Shown: positions 4,512 to 56,600, counted from the first letter of the stretch. The stretch is DNA of 64,000 bases from Clostridia bacterium (GCA_017626135.1 JAGAJI010000029.1:2328-66327), one strand, 5' to 3'. Notes: a model not told the origin generated them from the letters alone. Numbers and translations: made by a program.

Positions 4512-4528
4512 TGCGTTCAACGCAAAAA

Positions 4529-13641: not shown

Positions 13642-13654
13642 TGCTTCAAAAGTG

Positions 13655-13685: not shown

Positions 13686-13781
13686 GCGACTTACATTTTG
13701 CATTTTGCATGGGCGAACGTAAGAAAAGGGATAGATCCTCCGCGTTGCGTAGGCAACGCGGCGGATCTTTTTACTTTGCAA

Positions 13782-14402
13782 TTATTTCAGATTTTTTATT
13801 TCCGCCTGCAAAAGCTCCAAGAACCTCGCGACGTGTTTCCCGTCCATCTGCGTGTGGTGAAATTGCATGGAGATGGGGAGCAGGTATTTGATGAACTTCT
13901 TTTTGTACCTCCCCCAAACGAGGAAAGGATTGTTGTAAATACCCGAATAGAGGTTGACGGCGCAATCGATTTCCGTGCCGACGACGGCGGAAGTTCCGAT
14001 GATATTATACTCCTCGCCAAGGGCGTAGCCCTCGCCCGTCTCCTGCGTGCGTTTGGTGATGGACAGGTAACTTTCGTTGAATTTCGCCAAATCCCCGTCG
14101 AAGGGGATATCGCAATTCTCGATGCCGCCCCCTCGCAAGGACACGATGACGTTGATGGCAAGCTTATCGAATTGCCAGAGCTTGCCGTCCTTTGCGAGCA
14201 GGTAGAACTCGTCGATTTGCGATGCGGCCTTCCCGATCAGGTAGCAAAGGAGCATATTCAGTTTGAGCCCCTTCCGTTTGCTGCATCTGACGACGGGGGT
14301 AATATCGAAGGTCTTGACGAGCGTGACCATGGGCATGGGTGCGTTCATCCACAGCTCGAACGCTTTGGCACGGTTGGTTTTCGTGGGATCTAATTCTCTC
14401 AT
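13782..14402 (-). CDS. Chloramphenicol O-acetyltransferase (type A CAT) family protein
   Basis: 206 aa. The N-terminus ...RAKAFELWMNAPMPMVTLVKTFDIT and the catalytic-region motif SMQFHHTQMDGKHVARFLELLQ resemble the HHAVCDG(F/Y)H block of CAT enzymes. Confidence 0.7.
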   Translation of the reverse strand: MRELDPTKTNRAKAFELWMNAPMPMVTLVKTFDITPVVRCSKRKGLKLNMLLCYLIGKAASQIDEFYLLAKDGKLWQFDKLAINVIVSLRGGGIENCDIPFDGDLAKFNESYLSITKRTQETGEGYALGEEYNIIGTSAVVGTEIDCAVNLYSGIYNNPFLVWGRYKKKFIKYLLPISMQFHHTQMDGKHVARFLELLQAEIKNLK

Positions 14403-27107: not shown

Positions 27108-29507
27108 TTACTCCTCCGAATCTTTCCGCTTGTGTAAAATGAGATAATCGACGAGAATGAGAATGGTTCCAAACCCTAAAATGAGGTACGCCATCCGCCA
27201 TACGCCGTCGGTGTCCGTCTCCGTATCGCCGTTGACCACCGTTTCGGGATGGGGGGTGCTCCCGTCGAAAAGGGTGATATACGGTTTGGGTACGTAGCCG
27301 ATTTTTTCCTCGCCGTCTTCGCCCGTCACGCGGATTTCGTAATACGCGTGGTCGAGCTGCGTCACTTCGCCGAGCACGGCGACTTGCGCGCCATCCGTCA
27401 GCCTCCCCGTCGTCAGCACGCCGTGCACGTAGGGGAATTTATAGAGGGAGACGTCGTTGGTGAGATAGCCCGTCTTCGGCGTTTCGTAGTCCGTCTTGTA
27501 ACTTGCCTCTTCCAACGCCTCGCAGAAATCCGTCAGGACCAGACAGGTCTTGTACTCGCCCGTGCGCTGTTTGGCGATGGCGACGAGGGAATACGCACCC
27601 TCCTCGCCGAGTTTGAGCGCCGTCTGCGTCTCCTGTGTGCGCTCGAAGGCAACGTAGGGGAATTGCGTGGAATCCTGCAACGCAGAGACGTCGAATTCAA
27701 TGAGAATGGCATCCGCGTCCACGTTGACGACTTCGAAGTCCCGATGGGTTTCGCCGAAGATAAGCTCCGCGGCGTTGCCTACGGGAATGGGGTTGACGGC
27801 GGGAATGTTCAGTTCGTCCGTCTTCACGATATAATCGCCCTCGTAGAGAAGATAGGTGAGGTTCGTTTCCAAGCCGAACGCGAAGCTCTCCAACGCGGGA
27901 GCGTCGTCGTTGACGAGGTGATAATTTGGCGTGTAAGAGTGATTCAACTCGTACATACCCCCCTCGTTTTTGGAATATTCGTAAATCGTGCCGTCCACGA
28001 GCGCATAGAGATCGGTTTCATAATCGACGGAAATCTTTTTAGGAGAAAGCAAGCCTTCGAGGACTTTTTGTCCGCGTGCGTTGGCGCTCAACAGCTCCTT
28101 TTCCGTGTAGCGGTATACCGTGTCGTCGTCGTAGACAACGTATAAACTTCCGTATACGTCGGCGGTGAAGGAGACGGCGCGCAGGGTCTGCGTGTTCTTT
28201 TGCGTTTTCGTCCAAGCCCACTCGCCGCTCTCTTTGCTCAAAGTATAGCAATAATTATTTTCGGTGAGAAGGTAGTACCGCCCGTAGACGCTCGCCGTTC
28301 CGACGATCTTGCCTTCCGCCGCCACGCTGTCCAAACGCAGGGTGAGCAAGGACTCGCCGTAGGTGCGTTTTGAAAGGCTGTACACGACGGCTTCCTCCGA
28401 AGTGGAGACGAGCAGGGTACTTTGATAGGATTCGAGATAGGGATCGTTCAGCTCGGTGTAAATATCCGTGCCGAACGTTTGCGATTCCACGTCGTAGACG
28501 GCAATGCGCCCGTTTTCATCGTCCGCGATGAAGAGTTTGTTTTCGTTGAGCGTCAGCTCGCTCGCACCATTCAAACGATTAGGGGACGTGGAGGAAGAAC
28601 CGATTTCGTAGTCGGTAAAGCACGCGTTTTCGACCGAGTAGTGGCGCACGGTATCACCGCGCACGGCGTAGACGTTCCCGTCGTACGAGCAGAGGGAAGT
28701 ATAGCCCGTCTCCTCGTGCGTGATGGGAGTGACTTTCGAGATATCGTTCTTTCCCGAAAGGTCGGTGACGTTGTAACTGAAAAAGTCGCCGCTCTGGGTG
28801 ACCAGACACAAAAGGTTGTTCGCAACGGTGAGGGAGCGGAGCTTTTCGCCCACGTTCGTGACCTGCGTCAAACCGTACGTTTGCAGATTGATCGCGTACA
28901 CGGTATAGCCGTTTGCGAGCGTTTCGCTTTCCGTCACGCAGTACAGCCCGTCCTTTCCGAAGGCGAGAGGACTCTCGCTTTGCAAGGGAGTTTGCAGGGA
29001 GACTTCGTGAAGGAGAGCGCCCGTGGAGAGGGAGTAGAACTTCAACGCGTTCAAGCTCGTGTAATAGCACAGGACGTCGCCCTCGACGGCGAACAGTCCC
29101 TTGCAGGTGACGGGAAGAGAGGTTGCCGCCTCGCCGTTCTTCAAGTTTTCCGGCGTAAATTTATACAATTCCAACTCGGAAACGAAGTAGAGGTTGCCGC
29201 TTCCGTCAAATTCCACCTTCTGAATGGGGGCGGCGTGTTCGTATCGACGATAGACATTGTCCGCACGGTCGAATACGTAGAGGGTATTGCCGTCGGCGAT
29301 CGCAAGATAGCCTTCCGTCGCCGCAACGGAGTCGGGGGCGTTCAACGCCAGATACTGCTCGTACGAGGTGGGGGTGACGAGCTCCGCCTTGACCGTGTTT
29401 TCCTCTGCCGAAGCGGAGAACGTTCGGGCGCAAGAAAGCGCCGTTCCCGACGAGCAGAAAACGGTAAACGCAAGCGCCGATAAAATTGTAGCCGTAATTT
29501 TCTTCAT
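27108..29507 (-). CDS. Secreted, C-terminally anchored protein with repeat-rich (beta-propeller-like) ectodomain and SH3b-like module
   Basis: Signal peptide MKKITATILSALAFTVFCSSG. Recurrent ...LY.V..G.. strands. SH3b-like segment ...VAVLGEVTQLDHAYYEIRV...KIGYVPKPYI. C-terminal TM AYLILGFGTILILVDYLIL followed by HKRK. Confidence 0.6.
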   Translation of the reverse strand: MKKITATILSALAFTVFCSSGTALSCARTFSASAEENTVKAELVTPTSYEQYLALNAPDSVAATEGYLAIADGNTLYVFDRADNVYRRYEHAAPIQKVEFDGSGNLYFVSELELYKFTPENLKNGEAATSLPVTCKGLFAVEGDVLCYYTSLNALKFYSLSTGALLHEVSLQTPLQSESPLAFGKDGLYCVTESETLANGYTVYAINLQTYGLTQVTNVGEKLRSLTVANNLLCLVTQSGDFFSYNVTDLSGKNDISKVTPITHEETGYTSLCSYDGNVYAVRGDTVRHYSVENACFTDYEIGSSSTSPNRLNGASELTLNENKLFIADDENGRIAVYDVESQTFGTDIYTELNDPYLESYQSTLLVSTSEEAVVYSLSKRTYGESLLTLRLDSVAAEGKIVGTASVYGRYYLLTENNYCYTLSKESGEWAWTKTQKNTQTLRAVSFTADVYGSLYVVYDDDTVYRYTEKELLSANARGQKVLEGLLSPKKISVDYETDLYALVDGTIYEYSKNEGGMYELNHSYTPNYHLVNDDAPALESFAFGLETNLTYLLYEGDYIVKTDELNIPAVNPIPVGNAAELIFGETHRDFEVVNVDADAILIEFDVSALQDSTQFPYVAFERTQETQTALKLGEEGAYSLVAIAKQRTGEYKTCLVLTDFCEALEEASYKTDYETPKTGYLTNDVSLYKFPYVHGVLTTGRLTDGAQVAVLGEVTQLDHAYYEIRVTGEDGEEKIGYVPKPYITLFDGSTPHPETVVNGDTETDTDGVWRMAYLILGFGTILILVDYLILHKRKDSEE

Positions 29508-29635
29508 ACACTATTATTATACCACGCCCACCCGCGAAAAGTCAATAAGATAATGAAAAAAGTTGTATCCGCGAACAAACTTTTTTCGCAGTTGACAGCT
29601 TGAACGATATCCGAACGCGTTTTCGTAAAAAAGGA

Positions 29636-29666
29636 CTGAATTTTCCCAAAATTTGGAAAAATTCAG
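29636..29666. promoter_or_regulatory. 31-bp near-perfect palindrome (candidate operator) in divergent intergenic region
   Basis: CTGAATTTTCC-caaaattt-GGAAAAATTCAG. Confidence 0.35.
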
Positions 29667-29880
29667 CTTATATCAGGCATATGTATGTCATAATTTAATG
29701 ATAATATACATTTTAATACGAACAAATGTTCGGATTTTTAATCAAAAAAGTGTGGGTCAGAGCTTGCAAAAACGGCAAAGGGGTGGCATAATAGGCAACG
29801 TCAACACCCGCCGCGGAGGGACGCGTCCCAAACGGTTGAGGCGGCGGTTGAGAAAAATAAGCGGACGAGGTCCAAGAGAG

Positions 29881-30360
29881 GTGATTATAGTTTTGGAGAA
29901 TTACACGAAAGCCGTGTTGCGCACCTACCCGTTTTTGCAAATGATGCAGACGACGTACGAGCAACACATAAAGAACAGGGCGCTCTTATCCTGTGACGGG
30001 CGCATGAATACGGAGGTGTTGGCGGAGTACCTGGCGAGGGAAATTCTCCACAAACGATGCCTCGCATGGTTGGAAGAGATCATTCGGGACGCGCTGCTTC
30101 GCCTGAGCGAAGTGGAGCAGGTGCTCGTGCGGACGCATTTTTTTGGAGAAAATGCGGAGAATGCGGAGATCGGGAGTTGGAGCGATTCCAAACGGCTCCG
30201 CGTACAGGCGCGGTGTTTCCAAAGGTTGGAAGCGATGCTCCATCGCTCGGGCTTGACGAAAAAGTACTTTGACGAGGAACTCGTACATATTGAGATTATC
30301 CGAAAAATGTACAGACGGGTGGAGCGGGAAGGCGGAAAAGCGGAAGGGACGTTGGCGTAG
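29881..30360 (+). CDS. RinA/ArpU-like phage-type transcriptional activator (sigma region-4-like); start uncertain
   Basis: The architecture resembles late activators found upstream of terminase genes: N-terminal AVLRTYPFLQ...; C-terminal LSEVEQVLVRTHFFGE...SKRLRVQARCFQRLEAML. The track ORF start (29653) lies in AT-rich promoter DNA. Candidate starts are GTG 29881, TTG 29893 and ATG 29941. Confidence 0.4.
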   Translation: MIIVLENYTKAVLRTYPFLQMMQTTYEQHIKNRALLSCDGRMNTEVLAEYLAREILHKRCLAWLEEIIRDALLRLSEVEQVLVRTHFFGENAENAEIGSWSDSKRLRVQARCFQRLEAMLHRSGLTKKYFDEELVHIEIIRKMYRRVEREGGKAEGTLA

Positions 30361-30455
30361 TAGGCTCGTCTTTCCGCGCTCCGAGGGAACGGCTCCTTGG
30401 CGGTCGGGACTTCCCGTCAGAGAAGTTCCACGGGAAACATCGTTTTTCGTCGGCG

Positions 30456-31205
30456 TCAATCTTCCACGTCGAAGGTGGGCTTTTTGGGCGGTTTCAGGAT
30501 AAGCGCCGCCAGCACCGGGACCAGCAGACAGATCACGATCAAAATCGCGATTTGCATCGGCGAGGCACCGTCCGTGGGAAGGGGCTCTTCCGAGCTGTCG
30601 CTCGAGGGTGGCGACAGCGACGAAAGGTAGTCTGCGTATTCCGTGTTTGGATCGTAGGAAAATCCACTCGGCTTGGGGATATAACCAAACTCCTCGCCGC
30701 GAAGTACGTAGCAGTAGGTCTCCGACCCCACGCGATAGTCTCCGTAATACACACAGGAGAGGGTAATTTCCGTCAGGAAGGAGGAATTCCCCGTCTCGGC
30801 GTCCTCGATCGTGTACTTCACGTCGAATACGTAATACAGATACGGACGCACGGGTACGTAATTCACGAAGGTGAGTTCCTCCGTCTTCGCGTACCCCACG
30901 AGCCGTTGCGCGGCGCTCTCGTTGCGCTGGTATTCCACCTTGCAAAAGGTCGTGCCGTACTCCATCAGCCGCACGTAATAGCTTTTGGGCAACAGGAACA
31001 CCCCTCTGCGCTCGTCGGGTGCGGCGTAGAAAAAGACGTCGTCTGCCAGAATACAGGCGTAATCGCCGACGGAAGGGAGAGACGGCGCCGTCTCTGCCTT
31101 GGTAAGGACGGGGGGAGGGAGGATAGTTGCGCTCAGGCACAGGACGAGCAGAAGACGCAATATGTATTTGTACAGGGTTCGAGCCCGAGAAAGTAAGTAC
31201 CGCAT
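30456..31205 (-). CDS. Signal-peptide protein with SH3b-like module and C-terminal TM anchor
   Basis: MRYLLSRARTLYKYILRLLLVLCLSA...; ...FCKVEYQ...GYAKTEEL...; EEFGYIPKPSG; C-terminal TM IAILIVICLLVPVLAALIL followed by KPPKK. The long upstream extension in the track ORF (to 31994) overlaps terL in antisense. Confidence 0.6.
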   Translation of the reverse strand: MRYLLSRARTLYKYILRLLLVLCLSATILPPPVLTKAETAPSLPSVGDYACILADDVFFYAAPDERRGVFLLPKSYYVRLMEYGTTFCKVEYQRNESAAQRLVGYAKTEELTFVNYVPVRPYLYYVFDVKYTIEDAETGNSSFLTEITLSCVYYGDYRVGSETYCYVLRGEEFGYIPKPSGFSYDPNTEYADYLSSLSPPSSDSSEEPLPTDGASPMQIAILIVICLLVPVLAALILKPPKKPTFDVED

Positions 31206-31250
31206 ACGTGCTATCATTATAATGCCAAAGGAGGGGAGGTTTTTGACGTT

Positions 31251-32687
31251 TTGACGGAAAATTTGAAAGAAATTGTAGAAAGACTGCGCCGCGTGGAAGC
31301 GGAGCAGAAAAAGCGTAGGGAAAGTCCGCTTGCCACCTACAACGCAGGGGAGAAGAAACACGAGAAACAGCTCGCCTTTCATCGCTGTCCCAAGCGCAAC
31401 CGTTGGGTGTTCGGCGGCAACCGTTCGGGCAAGACGGAGTGCGGCGCGGTGGAATGCGTGTACATGGCGCGGGGGATCCACCCCTATCGGCAAAACCGCA
31501 AAAACGTTTGCGGGTGGGTCGTCTCCCTCTCCCAACAGGTGCAGCGCGACGTGGCGCAAAAGAAGATCTTGCATTACCTGCGCCCCGACTGGATTGAGGA
31601 CGTCGTCATGCTCAGCGGCAGAAAGGACGCCCCCGAACACGGCGTCATCGACTTCATTCGCGTGAAGAACGTGCTGGGCGGTTCCTCCGTCATCGGGTTC
31701 AAGAGCTGTGATCAGGGCAGGGAGAAATTTCAGGGCGCGTCCCTCGATTTCGTTTGGTTCGACGAGGAACCGCCCGAGGATATCTATGCGGAATGCCGTA
31801 TGCGCGTGCTCGATCGGAAGGGGGATCTGTTCGGCACGATGACGCCCCTCAAGGGCTTGACGTTCGTGTACAACGAGATCTTTCTCAATCGTAGACGGGA
31901 CCCCGAGGTTTGGTACGAGTTCATGGAATGGAGCGACAATCCCTACCTCGACAGGGGGGAAGTGGAGGCGCTTGCGAGCGGCATGGACGAGCACGTCTTA
32001 CAGGCGCGGCGGTACGGGCGATTCGCGACGGCGGCGGCAGGGCTCGTCTATCCCGAATTCGACGAGTGTATACACGTCATTGAGCCCTTCCCCGTACCCA
32101 AGGAGTGGCAGGACAATATCTCCATCGATCCCGGGCTCAACAATCCCCTGTCGGCGCATTGGTACGCGGTGGATTTCGACGACAACGTGTACGTCGTTTA
32201 CGAGCATTACGAGGCGGGACGGGATATCGACTACCACGCCAACGCCATCAAGGAGATTTGCCAAAAGCTCGAATGGCATACCGACGGTCGAGGTCGGATC
32301 TGCGCGCTCATCGACAGCGCGGCGAAGCAGCGGACGTTAGGATCGGTCAAGAGCGTGGTGGAACTCTTTTACGAACGGGATATCCTCGTCAATCCGGACG
32401 TGGAGAAGGATCTGTTTTCGGGGATTGCGAGGGTCAAGAGTTACTTAAAGCAGGACAACGGGCAACCCAACCTCTATATCTTCAACAACTGCGTCAACCT
32501 CATCAGCGAGTTGAAGGGATACTACTGGGGGAGCGGAGACGTGCCGAGGAAGGTGAACGACCACAGCCTCGACGAGATGCGCTACTATCTGATGACGAGG
32601 CCGAAAAACGCGCCGAACGTACCTAAGACGGCGATCCAAAAGGACAAGGAAAGGCTGGCAAGAAAACTGAGGAGAAAGCGGGGATAA
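31251..32687 (+). CDS. terL: Terminase large subunit
   Basis: TTG start 11 nt after GAGGGGAGG. Walker A GGNRSGKTECG, Walker B LDFVWFDEEP. C-terminal nuclease-like region (IDPG...; ...DHSLDEMRY). Confidence 0.85.
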   Translation: MTENLKEIVERLRRVEAEQKKRRESPLATYNAGEKKHEKQLAFHRCPKRNRWVFGGNRSGKTECGAVECVYMARGIHPYRQNRKNVCGWVVSLSQQVQRDVAQKKILHYLRPDWIEDVVMLSGRKDAPEHGVIDFIRVKNVLGGSSVIGFKSCDQGREKFQGASLDFVWFDEEPPEDIYAECRMRVLDRKGDLFGTMTPLKGLTFVYNEIFLNRRRDPEVWYEFMEWSDNPYLDRGEVEALASGMDEHVLQARRYGRFATAAAGLVYPEFDECIHVIEPFPVPKEWQDNISIDPGLNNPLSAHWYAVDFDDNVYVVYEHYEAGRDIDYHANAIKEICQKLEWHTDGRGRICALIDSAAKQRTLGSVKSVVELFYERDILVNPDVEKDLFSGIARVKSYLKQDNGQPNLYIFNNCVNLISELKGYYWGSGDVPRKVNDHSLDEMRYYLMTRPKNAPNVPKTAIQKDKERLARKLRRKRG

Positions 32688-32691
32688 TGCG

Positions 32692-32712
32692 AAAAGGAAG
32701 GGGGCAGGTATG
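32692..32712 (+). repeat. Dispersed motif copy E: AAAAGGAAGGGGGCAGGTATG
   Basis: Lies 5 nt after the terL stop. Its ATG opens ATG AGA TGA (M-R-stop), which overlaps the ATG (32715) of the next gene. Confidence 0.9.
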
Positions 32713-32714
32713 AG

Positions 32715-33050
32715 ATGAGTGAGAATGTGAAGAAGAAAAAGACGACGAGCGGGGATAGTGGGCGGGCGAAAAAACAGGTGGGGAAGAACGAACGGTTGGA
32801 GGACGCGCTCTTGAAGGTGGCGCTCGGCTATCAGGTGGCGGAAGTCACCGAGGAGTTCGCGGAAGTGGACGGACAGTTGAAACTCACCAAGCGGAAGAAG
32901 ACGAAGAAGGACGTCCCGCCCGACTTGAAGGCGGTACAGCTCCTGCTCGCCACCAAGGGCGTGGGGGAGATGTCGGCGTGGACGGACGAGGAGTTAGAGG
33001 CGGAACGGCAACGGCTCTTGAAGGAAATGGAGGGGGCAGGTACGAAATGA
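32715..33050 (+). CDS. Small basic protein, terminase small subunit-like
   Basis: 111 aa. The pattern ALLKVALGY...E......K.TKRKKTKKDVPPDLKAVQLLL resembles Firmicutes phage TerS proteins (K-rich, then PPD..A). It is located after terL rather than before it. Confidence 0.45.
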   Translation: MSENVKKKKTTSGDSGRAKKQVGKNERLEDALLKVALGYQVAEVTEEFAEVDGQLKLTKRKKTKKDVPPDLKAVQLLLATKGVGEMSAWTDEELEAERQRLLKEMEGAGTK

Positions 33051-33075
33051 AAGCAAAAAACAAGGAGAAAACGGC

Positions 33076-34977
33076 ATGAAAGAAGACGAGGTAAAACTGA
33101 ACGAGAAAACCCTGTTGCAACGGCAGGAGAGGGAAAACGCGCGCATCGCCGCGGAAGTGACGGCGGATTTTGAAAGGCGGCGCGAGGAGAGGCGCTCGAT
33201 CGAGAGCGGCTGGATCCTCAACATCAATTTTTTGAGTGGCAATCAGTATTGCGACGTGTCGCCGATCGGGGACGTCGTTGAGGAAGATCCGCAATTTTAC
33301 TGGCAGTCGCGACGGGTGTTCAATCACATCGCGCCGACGGTGGAATCCCGTATCGCCAAGCTCGAACACATGAGACCCGAGCTCACGGTGCGCGCGTTTT
33401 CAGATGAGGACGGCGACGTGAAGGCGGCGCAACTTGCGACGGGAATCTTGCGCTACGTGCAGGACAGAATCGGCTTGCAGGAGCTCTCTTCCCGCGCAAC
33501 GACCTGGTCGGAAACGTGCGGTTCGTCCTTTTTCAAGGTGGACTGGAACGCGCAGGGCGGCAGGCAGGTAGGCGTTGACGAGGACGATCGACCTATCTAC
33601 GAGGGAGAGGTGCGCATCAGCGTCGTGCCCCCGTTCGAGATTTTTCCCGACCGTCTGGACGTGGAAGAGTTTGCGGAGGTGCAAAGCGTCATTCACGCGC
33701 GGGCGGTGCCCGTTTCCTACGTCGAAGAGAAGTTCGGCGTGACGCTGACGGGGCGGACGATCTCGGGAGTGATGCAGTACAGCGAGCCTTCCACCGCCAA
33801 GCTGCCCTATCAGAAGACGGGGATGAATTTTACCGATATCAAGGACGCGGAAATACTCATCGAGCGCTACACCCGACCGAGCGTGGACGCGCCGCAAGGG
33901 AAACTTGAGATCGTGGCAGGGGGAAAGCTCCTCTATTCCGACGTGTTGCCCTTCGTCAACGGAGAACGCAACGAGCGGGGATTCCCCTTCGTTAAGCAGG
34001 ACTGCCTGCGTCTGCCGGGCGCCTTCTTCGGCGTGAGCATCATCGACCGACTCATTCCCGTACAACGGGCGTACAACGCGGTGAAAAACCGTAAGTACGA
34101 GTTTTTGAACAGGCTGTCCATGGGGGTGCTGACGGTGGAGGACGGCTCCATCGATACGGACGAGCTTTCCGAAGAGGGCTTGTTGCCCGGGAAGGTGCTC
34201 GTCTATCGACAGGGGGGCAAACCGCCCGAAATGCTCGATTGCGGCAGTATGCCGAGAGAGTTTCAGGCGGAAGAGGAGCTTTTGGAAGAGGAGTTCGCCA
34301 AGATTTCGGGCGTGAGCGATCTGGCGAAGGACTCCACGCCCGTGCGCGTGACGAGCGCGACGGGATTGCAACTTCTACTCTCCCAGGACGAATCGAGGCT
34401 GTCCGCGACGGTGAAGAGCATAGAGCGGGCGTTGAAGGAAGTCGGCAGACAGATCTTGCGGCTGTACCGCCAGTTTGCGGGCACGGCGAGACTCATGACC
34501 CTCACGGGGGAAAACAAAAAATCGCAGGTGTATTATTTCAATGCGTCCGGTCTCGACGTCAACGACTTGCAGTTTGAGTCCAGAGAGACGGTGACGCCTG
34601 CGGAAAAGAAGAACACGCTGCTGAGCTTGTACGAGGCGGGATTGCTCACCGACGAACGGGGGAATCTGACGCAGGAGAACAAAAATCGGATCTTGGAGGC
34701 GTTCGGGTTCGGGAGCTATGAAAACGCAAGGGATATTTCCGCCCTCCATATTGCGAAGGCAGGGGAGGAAAATCTCGACATGAAGAGCGGCGAGGTAGAA
34801 CCCGACGTGTACGACGATCACGCGCTGCATATCACCGAGCATACGCGCTTTTTGCTGTCGGCGGATTTCAAGCGTTGCCGCGACAGGGAGACACTCAAAC
34901 GAAGATACGTGGCGCATCTGGAAGCGCACAAAGCGTTATTACGGAAAGAAACCGCAGGGGAAGCTGCGGAAAAATAA
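33076..34977 (+). CDS. Phage portal protein
   Basis: 633 aa. Its position between terminase and scaffold supports the call, as does its size and its acidic, helix-rich composition. The assignment is partly positional. Confidence 0.7.
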   Translation: MKEDEVKLNEKTLLQRQERENARIAAEVTADFERRREERRSIESGWILNINFLSGNQYCDVSPIGDVVEEDPQFYWQSRRVFNHIAPTVESRIAKLEHMRPELTVRAFSDEDGDVKAAQLATGILRYVQDRIGLQELSSRATTWSETCGSSFFKVDWNAQGGRQVGVDEDDRPIYEGEVRISVVPPFEIFPDRLDVEEFAEVQSVIHARAVPVSYVEEKFGVTLTGRTISGVMQYSEPSTAKLPYQKTGMNFTDIKDAEILIERYTRPSVDAPQGKLEIVAGGKLLYSDVLPFVNGERNERGFPFVKQDCLRLPGAFFGVSIIDRLIPVQRAYNAVKNRKYEFLNRLSMGVLTVEDGSIDTDELSEEGLLPGKVLVYRQGGKPPEMLDCGSMPREFQAEEELLEEEFAKISGVSDLAKDSTPVRVTSATGLQLLLSQDESRLSATVKSIERALKEVGRQILRLYRQFAGTARLMTLTGENKKSQVYYFNASGLDVNDLQFESRETVTPAEKKNTLLSLYEAGLLTDERGNLTQENKNRILEAFGFGSYENARDISALHIAKAGEENLDMKSGEVEPDVYDDHALHITEHTRFLLSADFKRCRDRETLKRRYVAHLEAHKALLRKETAGEAAEK

Positions 34978-34989
34978 GGAGGAAAGGAT

Positions 34990-35712
34990 ATGAAAGAAGA
35001 GGAGAACGTTTACGAAGAAACCACGCGGTCGGAGGACGCAACAGCGGTTGAAGGAGAGAAAGCCTCGACGGTACCGGGTAAGTTTAAGGACGTAGACGCC
35101 CTGGTGAGGGCGTACAGCTCGCTGCAAGCGGAGTTCACGAGACGAAGCCAAAGATTGAAGGAGCTGGAAAAGAGAGTGGAAAATTTTGAAGGGGAAGGGC
35201 ACGACGCCCGTTCGGGGGCGGAAAAGCTCCGTAAGAACGCAAAGGCGCATCGGGAGGAGAACGAGCAGTTTGACAAATTCATGGCGGAAACCGTGGGCGT
35301 CAATTCGCAGAGCTCCGAGGAGGCCTCGACCTCTCAAAACTCCGTCGTATCGAAAAATCAACCCTCGGAAGAAGTCGCTAAAGAAACGCAAAATTCGCAA
35401 AACGGGGATACCATGTCTGCGATGAACGTTTCTGCAGCTGCGGAATCTGCTCAAAAAGGCGAAAGGGAAGCAACGGGAAAAATCGCATCGGAAGACGGGA
35501 CGAATACGGGAAACCTTTACGAGCAGGTGTGCCGTGACGAAGGGGTGCGTCTGAAAATCATCGGCGAATATCTGTCGTCGATCGGAAGATCGGGCGCGCC
35601 GCTTATGACGGGCGGAGTGGGTCTGTTGGCGACGCCACCTCAAAAGCCGAAGAGTATTTCGGACGCCGGGAACATGGCTTTGTCGTATTTCAAAAAGCCG
35701 AAAGCCAACTAA
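34990..35712 (+). CDS. Phage scaffolding protein
   Basis: 240 aa, acidic and coiled-coil. The motif GKFKDVDALVRAYSSLQAEFTRRSQRLKELE is common in scaffold proteins. It sits directly upstream of the capsid gene. Confidence 0.65.
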   Translation: MKEEENVYEETTRSEDATAVEGEKASTVPGKFKDVDALVRAYSSLQAEFTRRSQRLKELEKRVENFEGEGHDARSGAEKLRKNAKAHREENEQFDKFMAETVGVNSQSSEEASTSQNSVVSKNQPSEEVAKETQNSQNGDTMSAMNVSAAAESAQKGEREATGKIASEDGTNTGNLYEQVCRDEGVRLKIIGEYLSSIGRSGAPLMTGGVGLLATPPQKPKSISDAGNMALSYFKKPKAN

Positions 35713-35750
35713 GGCATTGCCTAAATAAAATAATAGGAGAATAATCATTT

Positions 35751-36917
35751 ATGGTAACACTTCAAACAGCGGATAACGCATTAAAATCTTTTTATCTCGA
35801 CGCGATGACGGACGCGCTCAACTTGAAAATCAATCCCTTGCTTGCACAGATCCAGCGTACCACCGCAAACGTCGTGGGTAAGGACGTGAGAAAGACGGTG
35901 CGCGTGGGCGTCAACGGCGGCATCGGCGCCGGCTCGGAAACGGGAGATCTTCCCACCTCCGGCGGGGGCGAATACGTGCAGTTCGTCGCAACCTTGAAAA
36001 ACTTGTACGGCACGATTGAGATTTCCGACAAGGCGCTCCGCGCGTCCGCAAACAGCGAGGGCGCGTTCGTCAACTTGCTCAACGAAGAGATGAGTTCGCT
36101 CGTCAAGAGCGCCTCCTTCAACTTCGGCAGAATGCTTTTCGGAGACGGCAAGGGGAGACTTGGTAAGGTGCTCGAGGTGAACGAGAATACAATCACATTG
36201 AGCTCTACGAAAGGGATTTTGGAAGGCATGATCGTCGGCTTCTGCACCGCAGGCGGCGCAGCGATCGCCGTAGCGCAAAAACGCAAGGTGCTTTCCGTCG
36301 ACAAGGCGAACTCCACGATTGTTTTAGACGGCGCGGCGCTCAACACGACTCTCTTGCCCGTGAACAGTATGCTTTATTTGCAGGATTCCAACCGCAACGA
36401 GATCACCGGTTTGGGCGCGATCTTTTCCACGAACGCGCTGTACGGCGTGGAGAGAACGCACTCCGTGATGCAGCCCTATATGAAGACGGAGGTGGGCGAG
36501 ATCACCGAAAACGTCATTCAGACTGCCATCGACGCCATCGAGGAAAACTCGGGCAGTCAGGTCAACTTCATCGTTTGCTCCTGGGGGGTGAGACGTGCGT
36601 TGGCGGAATACTTCAAGCAGTTTAAGACTATGCTGCCCACCATGGAGCTCGAAGGCGGTTTCCACGCGATGAGCTTTAACGGCATTCCCATCGTGGCGGA
36701 CAGATTCTGCCCGGAAGGAACCATGTACCTGTTGAACACCGACGACTTTGCCGTTCATCAGCTCTGCGACTGGCAATGGCTCGAAAGCGAAGACGGTAAA
36801 ATCCTCAAACAGGTTGCCGGGAAACCCGTATACACCGCGACGCTCGTGAAGTATGCGGAACTTATGTGCGATCGTCCGAGCGGTCAGGGTATGTTGAGCG
36901 GTATCACCGAAGCGTAA
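35751..36917 (+). CDS. Major capsid protein (HK97-fold type)
   Basis: 388 aa, following the scaffold gene. N-terminal NALKSFYLDAMTDALNLK...; C-terminal ...YTATLVKYAELMCDRP. Followed by a strong terminator, as is common for highly expressed capsid genes. Confidence 0.7.
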   Translation: MVTLQTADNALKSFYLDAMTDALNLKINPLLAQIQRTTANVVGKDVRKTVRVGVNGGIGAGSETGDLPTSGGGEYVQFVATLKNLYGTIEISDKALRASANSEGAFVNLLNEEMSSLVKSASFNFGRMLFGDGKGRLGKVLEVNENTITLSSTKGILEGMIVGFCTAGGAAIAVAQKRKVLSVDKANSTIVLDGAALNTTLLPVNSMLYLQDSNRNEITGLGAIFSTNALYGVERTHSVMQPYMKTEVGEITENVIQTAIDAIEENSGSQVNFIVCSWGVRRALAEYFKQFKTMLPTMELEGGFHAMSFNGIPIVADRFCPEGTMYLLNTDDFAVHQLCDWQWLESEDGKILKQVAGKPVYTATLVKYAELMCDRPSGQGMLSGITEA

Positions 36918-36926
36918 GAGCCAAAC

Positions 36927-36967
36927 AGAGTACCCAGGTATGCGTTGAGTTACTTGGGTACTCTTTT
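36927..36967 (+). terminator. Rho-independent terminator/attenuator after the capsid gene
   Basis: A 14-bp stem AGAGTACCCAGGTA / TACTTGGGTACTCT followed by TTTT. The loop and 5' arm carry the dispersed motif core CAGGTATGCGTTGA (36935-36948). Confidence 0.8.
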
Positions 36968-36992
36968 ATAACCGCAGAAAAGGAGGGAGAAT

Positions 36993-37535
36993 ATGAAAGT
37001 GAAAGAGATTGTGCTCTCGGCGGCGGAGTCGCTGGGGCTTGGGGAGGGCGTGTCCGCGTTTTTCGACGGCGGGGATCCCTGCCTGCAACGGGAGGCGGAG
37101 CTCCTGCTCGCTTGTTTCAACCGCGTGGAAAGGAGCCTTGCGCTCGAATATTTGCCGCTTTACGCCGAGGACGAGTTGCTTACCGTCGACGATGAGGTGG
37201 AATATTCGGCGTTGACCTACGCGCCCGTCCGCATTTTAGGGGTGGAAAACGGAGCGGGCGAATCCGTTCCGTATAAGCTCTATCCGCGATACTTAAAGGC
37301 GGTGTCGGGGAAGATCAAGGTGACCTACACCTATACGCCGAACGCCAAAACCATCGACGACGACAGCGATTTTACCCTGCCGTCCGTGCTTGAACACGGG
37401 ACGTTGGCGGAATACTGTCTGTCGGAAGGTCGGTTGGCGGAGTCCGCCGTCTGGGAGCAAAAATATAAGCAAGAGATCGAAGGGGCGTTCCGTGGCAAGA
37501 AGTACAAGCGCCTGCGTTCGAGAAGGTGGGTGTGA
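36993..37535 (+). CDS. Hypothetical phage structural protein (head completion/connector candidate)
   Basis: 180 aa. GGAGGGAG SD. Its stop overlaps the next start (TGATG), implying translational coupling. I recognise no family signature. Confidence 0.5.
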   Translation: MKVKEIVLSAAESLGLGEGVSAFFDGGDPCLQREAELLLACFNRVERSLALEYLPLYAEDELLTVDDEVEYSALTYAPVRILGVENGAGESVPYKLYPRYLKAVSGKIKVTYTYTPNAKTIDDDSDFTLPSVLEHGTLAEYCLSEGRLAESAVWEQKYKQEIEGAFRGKKYKRLRSRRWV

Positions 37536-38872
37536 TGGCGATCGGCGAAACGAAACGGAGAAAGCACGCGACGTTTTCCTTCTCCTTGCAGGAGAGGGGG
37601 AAGAATGTACTTTTGGCGAAGGAGAGCGTCAACTGCGACTGTCGTCTGGGCAGCTTGAAATCGGGCATGGGCGCGACGCCTTTGCGCAAAAGCGACGGTT
37701 CAACGCATACCTGCCCCGAGGGTAACGTCACGCATATCGTCATTCGCAAGGATTTGGACGACGAGACGAAGACCTATACCGAACGCATCGGCGCGTTGAC
37801 GGACGAGGGCGCGTTTTTCTTGCAGAGCGCTCTGGACGGAGAATTTACGCAGATCACGGTCAACGTTTTCGCGCCCGGGATCGTGCAATTCGCAGGGACG
37901 GATTCCCGGTATAAGCTCGCCGTCATCGGGGAGACGATGTGCGCCTTCCTGCGCGAGGACGACTCCTTTGATTTGGCGATGATGGACGGAATGAGCCGTA
38001 TCGGTTGTTTCTTCGCACACCGTATGTTCATCGGCGTCAAACCCTCCACGCTGACGTGTTCGGCGCCCGAAAACGTGCAGAGTTTCGCCCCGTCCATCAA
38101 CGACGGCGGACTCATTCGCTTTCCCAACGCGGGCGGAATGATGGTGGCGATGCAGGTGTATGAGGAGCGGCTGTACCTGTTTTTCGAGTACGGGATTTTG
38201 CGCGTGGACGCCAAAGGTGCGGTCAAGGACTTCAAGGCGGAGCAGTTGCCATACACGGGCGGCAAGATCTACGGGAAGAGCGTCTGCGCGGGCGTGCGCG
38301 GCATCTATTTCCTCGCCTCGGACGGTGTGTATCATTTCGACGGCAAGTGGACCAAACGGGTGTTGGACGGGTTTGTCCTTTGCCCGAAAGGGGAGACGTT
38401 GCTTGAAAGCAGCGCCGCGTTTGCCGGGCGGGTATTCTTGCGGTACGAGACGGACGAGGGCTACAAAACCTTGGTGTTTTACGAAGGGGAAGAGAGTGGG
38501 TATTATACGGACTTTTTCCCCATATTTAACAAGGACGACGGGGGCAAGTGTTTGTTCGCGGAGCCCGATCGCAAAATTTACGAATTTTCCGAACGGGGCG
38601 AAAAGGGCGCGGACGGGAGCTTTTCGAGCGAGGAAACGGACTTGGGCACGGGCGTGCGCAAGACGCTCACCAACCTGTATTTTACCGGTCGCGGCAGCTT
38701 TACGTTGACGGTGAAAACGGGGGGAAGAAAACTCGTGCGAGAGCTGACCTTTCAAGAGGGCAGGGCGGAGGTGCGGTTGTCGGAAAGCGGCGAGCGATTC
38801 TCCTTCGACTTCGCCCTTCCGTACGGTTCGGAGGTGAGCTCCATGTCGGCGGCGTACCTGCCCTTTGCTTAA
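37535..38872 (+). CDS. Hypothetical phage structural protein, repeat/beta-rich
   Basis: 445 aa. The ATG at 37535 overlaps the upstream TGA. Recurrent ...Y.F..DG.Y..DG... strands suggest a beta-propeller-like fold. Function unknown. Confidence 0.5.
   Translation: MAIGETKRRKHATFSFSLQERGKNVLLAKESVNCDCRLGSLKSGMGATPLRKSDGSTHTCPEGNVTHIVIRKDLDDETKTYTERIGALTDEGAFFLQSALDGEFTQITVNVFAPGIVQFAGTDSRYKLAVIGETMCAFLREDDSFDLAMMDGMSRIGCFFAHRMFIGVKPSTLTCSAPENVQSFAPSINDGGLIRFPNAGGMMVAMQVYEERLYLFFEYGILRVDAKGAVKDFKAEQLPYTGGKIYGKSVCAGVRGIYFLASDGVYHFDGKWTKRVLDGFVLCPKGETLLESSAAFAGRVFLRYETDEGYKTLVFYEGEESGYYTDFFPIFNKDDGGKCLFAEPDRKIYEFSERGEKGADGSFSSEETDLGTGVRKTLTNLYFTGRGSFTLTVKTGGRKLVRELTFQEGRAEVRLSESGERFSFDFALPYGSEVSSMSAAYLPFA
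37698..37717 (-). repeat. Dispersed motif copy H (only minus-strand copy): reverse complement reads GGGGCAGGTATGCGTTGAAC
   Basis: A 20/20 match to copy A (10365-10384), lying inside a + strand CDS. Confidence 0.9.
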
Positions 38873-38884
38873 GGAGGAGAAATC

Positions 38885-39370
38885 ATGACCATTGACATCA
38901 TCAGTTATACGGACGAGCAGTACGCGCTTTTGACGCTGGAACAGCTCAAGGAAGTCCGTTCGGCGCAGACGAAGAAGGATAAGCTGAAAATCGAGCTGGA
39001 CGCGGCGTTGCAAACCGCCAAAAATTCCCTCGTAAAAAAGGGGATCTACAATTCGGGACTCTATGCTCTCATCGAGAAGAAACTGCAAGCGGAGTATACC
39101 CAACAGGTGGAGTTGATCCGCGACGGCTTGCAGTTTTACCTTAAATATTCGATGCAACCGGACGGTTCGGCGTGGGACGCACCTTATCCCATCAATTTCG
39201 CGTTGTCCTACGAGGCTCGGTTCAACGTCGTGCGCAACTACTATGACACCACTTACGAGAACGCTTCGATACGTTTCGAAACTTTCCAACAAGACGTCTT
39301 CGCGCCTCGGTACTTAGGGGAACTGTACGAATCCCTCTACGCACATTACCGAGGCATGGCGATGGCGTAA
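38885..39370 (+). CDS. Hypothetical protein (last gene of phage-like module)
   Basis: 161 aa. GGAGGAGA SD. I recognise no family signature. Confidence 0.5.
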   Translation: MTIDIISYTDEQYALLTLEQLKEVRSAQTKKDKLKIELDAALQTAKNSLVKKGIYNSGLYALIEKKLQAEYTQQVELIRDGLQFYLKYSMQPDGSAWDAPYPINFALSYEARFNVVRNYYDTTYENASIRFETFQQDVFAPRYLGELYESLYAHYRGMAMA

Positions 39371-39381
39371 AGAATATCAAA

Positions 39382-39408
39382 AACGCAGGCGAAACGCTTG
39401 CGTTTTTC
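39382..39408 (+). terminator. Rho-independent terminator closing the phage-like operon
   Basis: AACGCAGGCG-aaa-CGCTTGCGTT followed by TTTT. A TGgTATAAT promoter for dut follows at 39418-39426. Confidence 0.8.
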
Positions 39409-53460: not shown

Positions 53461-53683
53461 TAAAATCAGATAAAAATTGATAGTGATAGAGGATTCAGAG
53501 CGTATCACAGCCGACCAAGCGAAGGCTTGGTCGGCGGTAGCGCACTGTAAATTGGAAAAATACACGAAGAAAAAACAGATATACCTTAATAAACATACAT
53601 AGATTTACCTTATACATAAGGGGCATTACGTTCGAAAAAATTGGTGAAACCCTTTCATGAAAATAAATTCAGGAGGAAGTAGA

Positions 53684-56600
53684 ATGAAAAGAAGGTTAGC
53701 GACGTTGTTCGTTGCACTCAGTTCTGCTTTTGTAGCATTTGGCTTTGCATCTTGCCAAATTATTCAATGGCAACCCGATTGGGGTTTTATTGAAAATGTG
53801 AATCGTTACGAGATAGAGTTGGATACGACGGAGTTCGAGCCCGTCGTACCCTACGATAGCGAGTTTGATTATCAAAGCATCAAACTCATCTATAAAGCAT
53901 ACCTGGGCGAGGAGGAACAGCCCTTCTATGAGTTGCAAATCTCGTTGAAACCGAACATGGTCACGGGCGGTTTGGATACGACGACACCCGGGGAGAAAGA
54001 ACTCATCATCGAATACGGTGGTGAGAGCTTTCTTCTGCCTTACGTAGTCAAGTATCAGGTGGACTTTCTTTCCAAAGGGGAAGTGTTCAACACGCAGTAC
54101 GTATTGAGCTCGGACGAAGTCGTCGTTCCTCAAGCCAAGGAGCAAGAGGGCTATACCTTCGCGTACTGGAAGTCGGAAGTGCCCGAGGTGTTGACGGAGA
54201 ACGTGGCGATCGAAGCGCATTATTACGATAACGCTCTGCACGCGCCTGCGTTGGAAACGATTCATTGCACATACGATCCCAACGCAACGGTTGCGCAGCT
54301 GACCCTTCCTTCTAACGAAAGCGGAAACTGGGAATTCGTAGACCCCGCCCTTCCCGTCGGGGATGCAGGCAGTCACGAATATGAAGTCCGTTTCGTATCG
54401 AAAACGGACGAACTTGCGCCCGTAGCAAACGAGCTCGTGAAAGTACAGGTAGCGAAGAAAGCCGTTGCCGCACCTGCGGTCAGCGCTTCGCTCGTTTACG
54501 CTGCGACGACGCAGAAAGCTACCGTCACCGACGTGGAGACGGACGATTCGCTGTACGCAATCGTCAACGAAGGCGGTATCAATGCCGGCAATTACTCCGC
54601 GACGGCAACGTTGAAAGACGTGAAAAACTACGTATGGAAAGATACCGACAACTGGACGGAAGTGGACGAAGCAACGGGTATCTTGACGTTCAAGTATACC
54701 ATTACGCCCAAACAGGTGGAATTCGTCATCGCGTCGGAAACCTTCACGTACAACCGTGGAGAACAGTTCCCTACGTATACGTTCGCAGACGCGTTCGACA
54801 ACGAACATATTACGGCGGCGGACGTCACCGTCACGGGTACGCCGAAGATCAATGCGGATACGTATGAGTACGGATTTGCGATGAACAATGCCAACTACGC
54901 AGGTAGCTATAGCGGCACGTTCACCATCGAACAAAAGGAACTCACCTTTATCGTAGACAGCAAATCCTTCGTCTACGACGGAACGGAACATTATCCCACC
55001 TATTCGTTTGCCGATCCCGAAGATCTGCCCAATGTCCGCGTGATGAGCGGTAAGCCGCAGACGGAAGCGGGCTCCGGCTATAAATACGGCTGGTTGGTGA
55101 TGGACGATAACTACACCGGTATGCATACGGGTACGTTTGCAATCACCAAACCCGACGTCACCGTCACCGCAGTATTGAGCGAAACGGAGATCACCTATCC
55201 CGCGGCAATCCCCGAAATCACCTTCACGGTAGAAGGATTTACGGGAGACGAAGCTCTTTTGAATATCACCGTCGAAAAGCCTACGGCAAACGTGGGTACG
55301 CACGAGATCACGCCCGTCGTGAACAACGCCAACGTGAACGCTACCTGCGTTTCCGCAACGTTGACCATCAATAAGGGCACGCCCGAATATTACCGTCCCA
55401 CGCTTTCCACGGACGGATTGCAGGGCACGGCTGCCATTTACGGCGACACCATTTCCACGGTCACCTTCAGCGACGAAGGCTTCGGTACGTGGGCGTGGAA
55501 GAATCCCGACCTCGTCATCGATCGGATGTCGGATTTCTCTGCGGTTGCCGTATTTACTCCGCAGGATCCCAACTTAAATCAGTTGGAAAAGGAACTCTTC
55601 ATTACGAACGAGTACCGTCAGATTGCAAAACGTACCCTCAATATCGTCGTGACGAAAAACGAGTATACGTACACGGGCGAGGAATTTGCGCTCGAATACA
55701 CGATCGTCGACGCAACGGATCCCGAGGGATACACCATTGAGCTCGACAAGCTTACCGTAAGCGGAAATTCCGTGGAAACGGAAGCAGGCGAGCATAACAA
55801 GACGCTGGAAATCGTCAGCGACTATTATAAGGGCGTCGTATCTCCGAAACTGATTATCCACAAGGCGGATCCCGTCGTAAGCCTGACCGTTGATCACGGC
55901 AACGTAGCGTATCGTCCCGCGCTGACTTTGGAAAACAGCGGTCTCACGCCTATCGGCACCGCGCATCGCGCCAACGACGACGAACCCGTAGAAGGTACGT
56001 TTACTTGGGTAAAAGGTTCGTATTCGTTGTCGGGACTTGCTATCGGTGTAGCAACGCCCGTGAAAGTCGTCTTCACGCCGACCGGCGAGAAAGCGAATAA
56101 CTATAACTCCGTCATTTTGACCTACAACGTTACGGTGGATAAGGCGGATAGCGTTATTCAGAAAGTGGAGGGAAGCAACAAAGTCGCTCTTCTTGAAACT
56201 TATGAAAAGGTATACGATGCAAGCGCCTTCGCCTTCAAGGCGCAGGTAAGCCGTGACAACGAATTGCCGGATACTTCGACGATTACGTACACGTATAAGA
56301 ACGTGGCTACGGGCGTGGAGAGCGCTACGATTACGGAAGCGGGCGAATATGAATTGACGATTTCCGTAGGAGCAACCACGCACTATAAAGGTGCAACGGC
56401 TACGGTGATCGTAAGAATTACGCAGGCGTCCAACGAATGGAAGGACGGTCCCGCAATCGGACCTAACTCGTCATGGACGTATAAAAACCAAGGTAGCAAC
56501 CAAATTTCCGCTACCGCGAAGTTCGGAACGAGCACGATCGTAATCACGTATACGAATACGACGACGGGTACGGTGTATCATAATGCGGATAACAAACTGC

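Follow-up and report, generated by a model that had tools for sequence, protein, structure and literature searches.

Gene transfer agents (GTAs) have been well characterized almost only in Alphaproteobacteria. GTAs or viriforms in the sense of Lang-Beatty and Kogay et al. (2022) form particles with largely random host DNA, in fragments that cannot accommodate their own encoding genes, and deliver this DNA to recipient cells. In RcGTA-type GTAs and viriforms, accessory functions are encoded elsewhere, and the small terminase (TerS) lacks sequence-specific DNA binding. The present work concerns an eight-gene block of phage-derived packaging, head and neck genes at positions 31251-39370 of a 64,000-nucleotide stretch of DNA from a Clostridia bacterium (GCA_017626135.1, JAGAJI010000029.1:2328-66327), a stretch that is referred to below as the window and has a GC content of about 52%. 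The block probably encodes a host-maintained DNA-packaging particle that is domesticated, podovirus-derived and GTA-like; actual gene transfer by this particle is less certain. We consider it likely that a remnant of a short-tailed phage of the P22/SU10 type is vertically inherited and has been kept by Candidatus Scatosoma and related gut Clostridia as a podovirus-type, GTA-like 'viriform' for the making of small particles filled with DNA. Domestication is supported by clade-wide synteny, intactness of the genes, purifying selection and co-divergence with core genes, and on these grounds the view of a preliminary description of this DNA, which had proposed a resident, domesticated packaging particle rather than a complete prophage or a decaying one, was retained.

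The closest described system is FpGTA of Faecalibacterium prausnitzii, which was reported in Nature Communications (Borodovich et al. 2026; PMC12946183) and is the first podovirus-like example of a GTA from a gut commensal. Its operon I of 10.5 kb encodes a TerS-like protein without a DNA-binding domain, the large terminase (TerL), a portal, a major capsid protein (MCP) and a nozzle similar to P22 gp10 (8eap), and operon II, located 125 kb away, encodes fibres, a receptor-binding protein (RBP), a holin and an endolysin (PMC12946183). The particles measure 40 nm, are apparently tail-less and contain 8.4-8.9 kb of host DNA; the authors raised the same caveat that applies here, namely that the role may be other than gene transfer (PMC12946183). 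GTA-like packaging was also seen for metagenome-assembled genomes (MAGs) of Christensenellaceae, for which no locus was identified, and PBSX of Bacillus subtilis packages random host DNA (PMC12946183). Within the paper library searched, no description of the present locus and no further paper mentioning FpGTA was found.

Like FpGTA, the locus is a chromosomal, near-ubiquitous and podovirus-like operon of a gut Clostridia lineage, with a TerS-like protein without a DNA-binding domain, a TerL of the Terminase_6 type, a portal, an MCP and a P22-gp10-like nozzle (PDB class 8eap), and in both cases the main operon carries no fibre or lysis genes. The two differ in host clade. Only FpGTA operon I has a Prp-like gene, which lies between portal and MCP, and encodes an abundant protein resembling TolA; moreover, the TerL gene of FpGTA abuts the portal gene (accession order), whereas a small TerS-like gene separates them here and a scaffold-like gene is present in addition. 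No genes of the operon II type (fibre, RBP, holin, endolysin) were found here within 64 kb and flanks of ±10 kb. The FpGTA MCP is named as a member of the N4-gp56 family, whereas the present MCP belongs to NF033394 and had no N4-gp56 match at E < 0.01 (NCBIfam); component homology to operon I was not seen in the MCP family names, the two systems having been compared by product names and not by sequences. Faecalibacterium entries were absent from the look-ups of nozzle, portal and MCP relatives, including the high-GC loci of IMG/VR. By analogy, the two appear to be the same kind of system, homology not being claimed, and the novelty of the present one would lie in a further podovirus-like, GTA-like element in a different and uncultured clade.

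With RcGTA-type GTAs of Alphaproteobacteria, BaGTA and VSH-1, the locus shares a phage-derived structural cluster that is chromosomally fixed, vertically inherited throughout a large clade and under purifying selection, and the absence of integration and replication genes (here, from the window). Those agents resemble siphoviruses or myoviruses and have a prohead protease of the HK97 type, a tail tube and a tape measure, whereas the locus is podovirus-like and has a scaffold and no protease.

Packaging, head and neck genes

All eight open reading frames (ORFs) of the block were found intact and tightly packed on the plus strand, where the preliminary description had placed them, and the locus has a size of 8-9.5 kb. 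The first gene (31251-32687, +) encodes a TerL of 478 amino acids with an ATPase and an RNaseH-like nuclease part, which matched Terminase_6N (8.8e-10), Terminase_6C and phrog_2 (1.8e-31) in profile searches and is a large terminase of the T4/Terminase_6 type. Both ATPase motifs reported earlier were located, Walker A (GGNRSGKT, residue 55) and Walker B (DFVWFDEE, residue 166). They are kept in 80 of 80 sequences, as are the TMTP coupling motif and the three Asp motifs of the nuclease, and TerL identity across the clade is 75-89%. The next gene (32715-33050, +) encodes a small basic protein of 111 amino acids with a match to phrog_309 (6.6e-7), in which residues 25-81 align with positions 195-245 of the 319 positions of this 'terminase small subunit' family, so that the match is confined to the C-terminal half of the profile. 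The phrog_309 signal was present in 30 of 56 orthologs and phrog_23444 in four, a search against PDB sequences gave nothing significant, and phage relatives have a small ORF in the same position between TerL and portal. This signal, weak but consistent, suggests a TerS-like core fragment without a recognizable DNA-binding N-terminal domain, in agreement with the earlier designation as a TerS-like basic protein. Packaging would be carried out by TerL, all of whose ATPase and nuclease motifs are kept, together with this truncated partner, and would load any DNA available.

The portal protein (633 amino acids; 33076-34977, +) is of the P22/SU10 type, as judged by its scores with P22_portal (9.4e-21), SU10_portal (8e-14) and phrog_156 (4.8e-39). 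It has 5548 homologs, the best 120 of which are all at least 68% identical and in many cases lie on contigs of more than 100 kb; its profile found no PDB sequence at E ≤ 0.001. The MCP (388 amino acids; 35751-36917, +) belongs to a podovirus family of the HK97 fold, NF033394 capsid_maj_Podo (5.5e-76), and also matched phrog_14242 (7e-52) and, weakly, SU10_MCP; nothing significant was found among PDB sequences. The earlier naming of a 633-residue portal and an HK97-type capsid protein was therefore sound. For the scaffold, the naming agrees with the position of the 240-residue candidate between these two genes (34990-35712, +) and with its coiled-coil, low-complexity sequence, and found no counterpart in a family match (Pfam, PHROG, NCBIfam); the ORF is kept in 72 loci, and the protein is a scaffold candidate by position. 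The cluster contains no gene for a maturation protease, and procapsids would form on portal and scaffold without one, as in P22.

The three genes downstream of the capsid gene had been described as encoding unknown proteins of 180, 445 and 161 amino acids, and the module as tail-less. Profile searches of the proteins encoded at 36993-39370 and 32715-33050, which had been proposed at the time, identified an adaptor and the TerS-like protein, a structure model identified a nozzle, and only the 161-residue protein stayed without a match. The 180-residue protein (36993-37535, +) can be assigned as a head-to-tail adaptor of the SU10-adaptor type from its position and from PF24175 SU10_adaptor (1.3e-5), with 26.2 bits against a cut-off of 27, just below the Pfam threshold. 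This is its sole family match and was seen in 8 of 57 orthologs; PDB sequences gave nothing significant. Its gene lies directly after the MCP gene and before the nozzle gene, which is the position of P22 gp4.

For the 445-residue protein (37535-38872, +), an AlphaFold model built from an alignment of 16 homologs had a predicted local distance difference test score (pLDDT) of 85 and a predicted template-modelling score of 0.83, and showed a beta-propeller and a C-terminal beta domain. A Foldseek search against the PDB gave as its top match the Pa223 protein 9nwi_Y (E 1.7e-16, TM-score 0.71), P22 gp10 (8eap_D) being matched at 1.2e-13 with a TM-score of 0.62; further fold matches were GP4 (8jov), Sf6 gp8, VP1, Pan3, SU10 and T7 gp12, so that the best PDB matches were all podovirus nozzle or hub proteins. 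On the strength of this model, the protein is confidently assigned as a podovirus tail nozzle of the P22 gp10/Sf6 gp8/T7 gp12 class. Its family comprises 1278 representatives of 50% clusters, with a constant length of about 450 amino acids. The third protein (38885-39370, +) is all-helical; its AlphaFold model (pLDDT 88) consists of a long helical hairpin and a small helical bundle, and its ORF is kept in 65 loci at a length of 157-171 amino acids. It had no significant fold match in the PDB or BFVD and no PDB sequence match. Its gene occupies the position of the P22 plug or needle gene gp26, and from this position the protein may act as a plug of the nozzle.

In P22, the gene order is gp1-gp8-gp5-gp4-gp10-gp26. 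With the adaptor and nozzle identified, the order portal, scaffold, capsid, adaptor, nozzle and small protein therefore copies that of P22. Since an SU10-type adaptor and a podovirus nozzle are encoded, the module cannot be called tail-less: its genes specify a minimal short-tail neck, and the window has none for receptor binding, ejection or lysis. In comparison with P22/SU10-like podoviruses, the portal, capsid, adaptor and nozzle belong to the same families or folds and stand in a P22-like order, whereas tailspike or fibre genes, ejection proteins, a lysis cassette and replication and lysogeny modules occur neither in the window nor in the orthologous loci. The adaptor and nozzle would seal the portal after packaging, with the 161-residue protein possibly plugging the nozzle, and release and adsorption would depend on lysis and receptor-binding functions outside the locus, presumably encoded elsewhere as in FpGTA operon II.

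The identity of the neck also bears on a capsid-forming phage-inducible chromosomal island (cf-PICI), or another satellite hijacking the tails of a helper phage, which the preliminary description had offered as an alternative. Like cf-PICIs, the locus has capsid and packaging genes of its own and no complete virion; its head and packaging genes come without a long tail, and fragments of related loci are listed as viral in IMG/VR. However, cf-PICIs are mobile islands with an integrase, regulation and replication modules, att sites and helper tails, none of which was found at the locus; no integrase, AlpA, primase-replicase or att site occurs in the window. In addition, the adaptor and nozzle are its own and of podovirus type rather than connectors for a helper siphovirus tail, and the location is fixed, with vertical inheritance and co-divergence with core genes. 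A satellite is hence regarded as extremely improbable, and the earlier suggestion was given up.

Conservation and inheritance in the clade

One genome per GTDB species was scanned, and 151 species with a relative of the locus were found, the best 80 of which were compared. These are mostly Candidatus Scatosoma or other Clostridia MAGs from animal and human guts. The order mgtE (-), a 799-residue protein gene (-), a candidate regulator (+), a 253-residue protein gene (-), TerL, TerS-like, portal, scaffold, MCP, adaptor, nozzle, 161-residue protein, dut and trmB is kept in essentially all of these approximately 80 species. The block and its flanks were also found in eight conspecific metagenome contigs, and an identical capsid protein, with the same genes beside it, is encoded on at least 23 metagenome contigs. 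Ortholog lengths vary little, being 382-392 amino acids for the MCP, 181-191 for the adaptor and 437-481 for the nozzle.

On one side the block is flanked by mgtE and surface-protein genes and on the other by dut and trmB, and scans of the flanks bore out the neighbours named in the preliminary description. Its further statement that no integrase, repressor, replication, tail tube, tape measure, fibre, holin or endolysin gene lies nearby was upheld when all large ORFs of the 64-kb window were searched against Pfam and PHROG. Hidden tail or lysis genes were likewise not found in the flanks, where PHROG matches were confined to a generic Ig (Big_2) domain; no tRNA or Rfam family was detected in the window, and no convincing att-like direct repeats flank the cluster. 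Within the window, the locus is thus a phage-derived structural cluster in a chromosome without integration, lysogeny or replication modules, as expected of a GTA or viriform. Codon usage of the cluster is host-like and ameliorated: the relative synonymous codon usage of cluster and host genes correlates at 0.92, and that of one half of the host genes with the other at 0.94, as the similar codon style noted earlier had indicated.

These results can be set against an ordinary small podovirus prophage, the other genes of which would lie just beyond the recognized part. The adaptor and nozzle do form an encoded tail neck, and there are phage relatives with the same order of TerL, small ORF, portal, scaffold and MCP. 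The flanks, however, are the syntenic host genes mgtE, dut and trmB, and insertions found downstream in some species contain leucine-rich repeat (LRR), restriction-modification (R-M), peptidase and anti-sigma-like genes, not phage genes. The codon usage is ameliorated, the closest phages are 22-25% identical, and, instead of a complete podovirus tail with variable presence and att sites, a tail of adaptor and nozzle at a fixed locus was found. Such a prophage is highly improbable.

Among the 57 loci that span TerL to the 161-residue protein gene, 56 are intact; 50 of the 57 pass strict coverage, and six fail only through short BLAST segments of divergent genes. The remaining one, L033 (MAG RGIG4577, from roe deer), has a deletion (12695-13790) that has removed the adaptor and the greater part of both MCP and nozzle, the TerL, portal, scaffold and 161-residue protein genes being kept, and is either the only decayed copy among the 57 or an assembly artefact. 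The ratio of nonsynonymous to synonymous substitution rates (dN/dS) was computed against relatives at 85-91% portal identity. It was 0.02-0.05 for TerL, 0.04-0.07 for the portal, 0.08-0.10 for the MCP, 0.06 for the 161-residue protein gene, 0.13 for the adaptor and 0.2 for the nozzle, as compared with 0.03-0.08 for mgtE, 0.04 for dut and 0.03 for trmB, all of these values being rough because dS is saturated (above 1 throughout, and similar inside and outside the cluster).

A cryptic, decaying prophage remnant that simply has not been deleted so far would account for the fact that only head and neck genes are left, and for the deletion in L033. Against decay stand the eight ORFs, intact in 56 of 57 species across genus-to-family divergence, the dN/dS of 0.02-0.2, the invariant catalytic motifs and a covarying regulatory hairpin. 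It is very unlikely, and the earlier argument that the lack of disrupted genes speaks against simple decay, as well as the synteny and dN/dS comparison proposed with it, was borne out across the approximately 80 species.

Another possibility is that the particle is domesticated but serves a role other than transfer, such as PBSX-like killing or lysis, release of extracellular DNA for biofilm, or decoy and defence, packaging being only a part of assembly. Synteny, dN/dS, co-divergence and intactness fit any particle that benefits the host, and, with no receptor-binding or ejection genes linked in the window, delivery of DNA is not assured. Nevertheless, the TerL motifs and the TerS-like partner are the most constrained in the locus, which points to packaging as the selected activity, and no toxin or bacteriocin-like gene is linked. 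PBSX is, like the locus, a domesticated Gram-positive phage-like element; unlike it, PBSX is a contractile-tailed killing particle with its own lysis genes, another morphology and other gene families. A non-transfer role is considered rather unlikely, though to be taken seriously.

The evolution of the cluster was found to follow that of the host. Mean pairwise protein p-distances are 0.21 for TerL, 0.21 for dut and 0.29 for mgtE, and the distance matrices of TerL, portal and MCP on the one hand and mgtE, dut and trmB on the other correlate at r = 0.70 (Mantel p = 0.001, 22 genomes). The housekeeping p-distances reach 0.32, which corresponds to genus-to-family-level divergence. As in GTAs and viriforms, the element evolves with its host at a fixed locus, by vertical inheritance and under purifying selection. 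In the nearest outgroups, in which trmB is 53-57% identical, dut and trmB are adjacent and the cluster is absent, so that the element must have entered the ancestor of the clade or have been retained only there. Cluster-free genomes, in which att-like junctions were to be sought, therefore exist; no empty-site junction could be defined, the upstream synteny not being conserved in these outgroup dut-trmB loci.

Related clusters in phages and other lineages

The closest portals of GenBank phages are only 22-25% identical, for example that of Arthrobacter phage Jasmine, which has the order TerL, small ORFs, portal, scaffold and MCP in common with the locus. In Jasmine a tail spike and an endolysin are annotated, with no tape measure within the stretch examined. 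Closer relatives occur on short IMG/VR contigs that are classified as 'viral' and have the same architecture, with TerL 60-68%, portal 42-48% and MCP 41-61% identical and a GC content of 31-44%. One of these, L096 (IMG/VR 3300032167_006109; 37% GC), carries at 1896-7977 a cluster of TerL, TerS-like, portal, scaffold and MCP genes, with a TerL that is 68% identical. The cluster starts 190 nucleotides past gyrA, the identity of which was verified (E 8.6e-174), and downstream of gyrB, and the contig is listed in IMG/VR as viral. Because this cluster adjoins gyrB-gyrA, related clusters are embedded in core-genome contexts of other lineages, at different sites. Farther relatives lie on contigs of 24-65 kb, with portals 29-39% identical and extra genes between the MCP and a nozzle-like gene, and look like true phages.

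It is conceivable, though less probable than not, that the locus represents an ancient viriform lineage not described before, the domestication of which was independent of that of FpGTA: a minimal, eight-gene, podovirus-derived packaging particle that has a sigma-like activator of its own, is fixed in the Candidatus Scatosoma clade and has sister versions at other core-genome sites, for example after gyrB-gyrA in a low-GC lineage. If this were true, GTAs built of a head and a nozzle would be a widespread and so far unrecognized route of DNA mobilization in uncultured gut Firmicutes, and could underlie, at the genetic level, the GTA-like packaging by Christensenellales-type MAGs. The locus is in any case a clade-wide GTA candidate from a gut genus that is uncultured and at times dominant. 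Its conservation is as tight as that of housekeeping genes, and it adds to the evidence that chromosomal DNA may commonly be mobilized by capsids in the gut. Head-gene contigs that are called 'viral' in catalogues of the IMG/VR type can be host-owned loci, and TerL, portal, MCP and nozzle are defined targets for mining long reads of virus-like particles and metatranscriptomes.

Several points weigh against a domesticated, GTA-like particle. Transcription, particles, packaged DNA and transfer are all predictions made from genes; genes for receptor binding, DNA ejection and lysis are absent from the 64-kb window, and the 161-residue protein and the scaffold are without recognizable homologs. The assignment of the upstream regulator, described below, is weak. 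The locus is dispensable at least in L033, where MCP, adaptor and nozzle have been lost, and the saturation of dS limits the estimates of selection. Lastly, the presence of homologous clusters at other sites makes some horizontal movement over deep time possible.

Regulation, expression signals and neighbouring genes

Upstream of the block, at 29881-30360 (+), lies the gene of a candidate regulator of 159 amino acids, perhaps a late activator of the sigma region-4/RinA type as judged by its position and faint profile matches; the consensus of the orthologs favours a TTG start at 29893. The preliminary description had taken it for a RinA/ArpU-like activator. The ORF is kept at the same position in 60 species loci, and the likeness received weak support: its profile gave sigma region-4 matches in the PDB at E 0.2-0.6, and an hhalign comparison with 80alpha RinA was weak (P = 6e-4, probability 29%, 77 columns), with an ER..L..(R/Y)YF.K motif aligned. 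No Pfam, PHROG or NCBIfam match was found, a Pfam search with the 60 orthologs was also empty, and tblastn against GenBank phages gave nothing. The designation 'RinA-like' is plausible but unproven, and the protein is a candidate member of the particle system by linkage.

Between the regulator and TerL, a conserved gene on the minus strand (30456-31217) was overlooked in the preliminary gene inventory. It encodes a membrane-anchored protein of 253 amino acids with an N-terminal signal or transmembrane segment and a C-terminal transmembrane segment, and is called on the minus strand by gene callers in conspecific metagenome contigs. Its orthologs are 39-66% identical, versus 27-43% for the overlapping plus-strand frame, and its dN/dS is about 0.09-0.15. 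In L090, a distant locus of low GC content, a homolog with 27% identity likewise lies upstream of TerL. The protein had no family match in NCBIfam, Pfam or PHROG, and its membership in the particle system is uncertain.

A -10-like box, ATTATAAT, is located at 31216-31223 (+), about 28 nucleotides upstream of the TerL start, and is the putative operon promoter. In 69 aligned TerL upstream regions from different species, ATTATAA is at least 90% conserved, and no conserved -35 element was found in the same regions. A conserved -10 without a -35 fits an activator-dependent promoter, and induction may occur when a host signal acts through the 159-residue sigma-region-4/RinA-like protein on this -10-only promoter. 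From the arrangement of the genes, TerL, TerS-like, portal, scaffold and capsid genes would then be co-transcribed. A palindrome, ACTGAATTTTCCCAAAATTTGGAAAAATTCAG, with a perfect-looking 15-bp stem (29635-29667; -13.3 kcal/mol, z -4.3) is situated in the divergent region between the gene of the 799-residue surface protein and that of the candidate regulator, where it may serve as an operator or as a terminator for both directions.

Head proteins are usually kept in excess of tail proteins by a terminator or attenuator downstream of the capsid gene. In the locus, an RNA hairpin with a U-tract, a probable attenuator or terminator, follows the capsid gene at 36927-36964 (+), with a folding energy of -23.2 kcal/mol (z -5.7) and the sequence UUUUAU behind it. 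It was found in most species, and compensatory changes occur at five of seven consensus pairs, for example CG in 17 and UA in 11 sequences, or GC in 14 and AU in 13. The conservation of this hairpin argues that the operon is expressed and tuned. It probably sets the ratio of head to tail expression, by reducing read-through into the adaptor, nozzle and 161-residue protein genes. The operon ends with an intrinsic terminator at 39379-39407 (+), consisting of a 13-bp stem and a T-run (-17.2 kcal/mol, z -3.8), so that both terminators proposed earlier, after the capsid gene and at the operon end, proved real.

The conserved loop of the post-capsid hairpin bears a dispersed motif, GTA(T/C)GCGTTGA. 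That a host motif is dispersed in this DNA had also been noted, and it is real, GGGCAGGTATGCGTTGAA having eight matches in the window versus 0.07 expected; the positions given for the copies in the block were slightly off. Copies are located at 10366, 11730, 17199, 24563, 32702, 33034, 36935 (in the hairpin loop) and 37699-37716 (-). The consensus of 18-19 nucleotides is GGGGCAGGTATGCGTTGAA, and it is found clade-wide, in about 50 species loci among L011-L089. The motif lies almost always on the gene strand, 5-20 nucleotides past the stop of the preceding gene, either at true gene starts (11743, 17208, 32715) or in loops of terminator hairpins. It contains a G-run resembling a Shine-Dalgarno sequence and a mini-ORF of two codons, ATG-CGT-TGA, the variants of which (ATG-AGA-TGA, ATG-CGA-TGA) retain Arg, and the stop codon of this mini-ORF overlaps a start codon, TTG or ATG. 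A signal for DNA uptake or a pac site was considered and is disfavoured by the location of the copies, mostly on the gene strand, at intercistronic junctions and in terminator-like hairpin loops. From these features, the motif looks like an element of intercistronic coupling or re-initiation, or one resembling repetitive extragenic palindromic (REP) sequences.

Further genes of the window were identified by profile scans of the flanks. Upstream on the minus strand are mgtE, found in the Pfam/PHROG scan, and the gene of the secreted or anchored 799-residue protein (27108-29507), and downstream are dut, trmB and a hydrogenase-like gene. The 799-residue and 253-residue neighbours, both on the minus strand, are alike in having an N-terminal signal and a C-terminal transmembrane segment and are membrane-anchored; SH3b-like segments were seen by eye in both, and the former showed a faint PQQ/beta-propeller signal.

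The spacer between the 161-residue protein gene and dut is a hot spot of insertions, which were found in nine other species. In four of the nine, BspA-type LRR surface proteins are encoded (L022 17239-20559, L025 16820-18748, L031 12890-14476, L033 14252-16903); other insertions are located at L032 8836-11089, L053 16652-20024 and L028 14576-16474. One insertion in this spacer carries an EcoRI-type methylase with a GmrSD/HNH nuclease (R-M), and others carry RsgI-like anti-sigma proteins or an M13 peptidase. The idea that these insertions are lost tail or lysis modules was rejected in view of these contents, namely LRR surface-protein, RsgI-like, R-M and peptidase genes.

Surface proteins are also encoded towards the two ends of the window. 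That at 2420-4444 (+) combines collagen triple-helix repeats with BspA-type LRR_5 repeats. At the other end, 53648-64000 (+), a single giant ORF of more than 3451 codons runs past the end of the window; it encodes many Ig-like repeats and a signal peptide of the lipoprotein type. The minus strand shows long ORFs at 53.7-62.2 kb, which were rejected as genes, being antisense shadows of this giant surface-protein gene.

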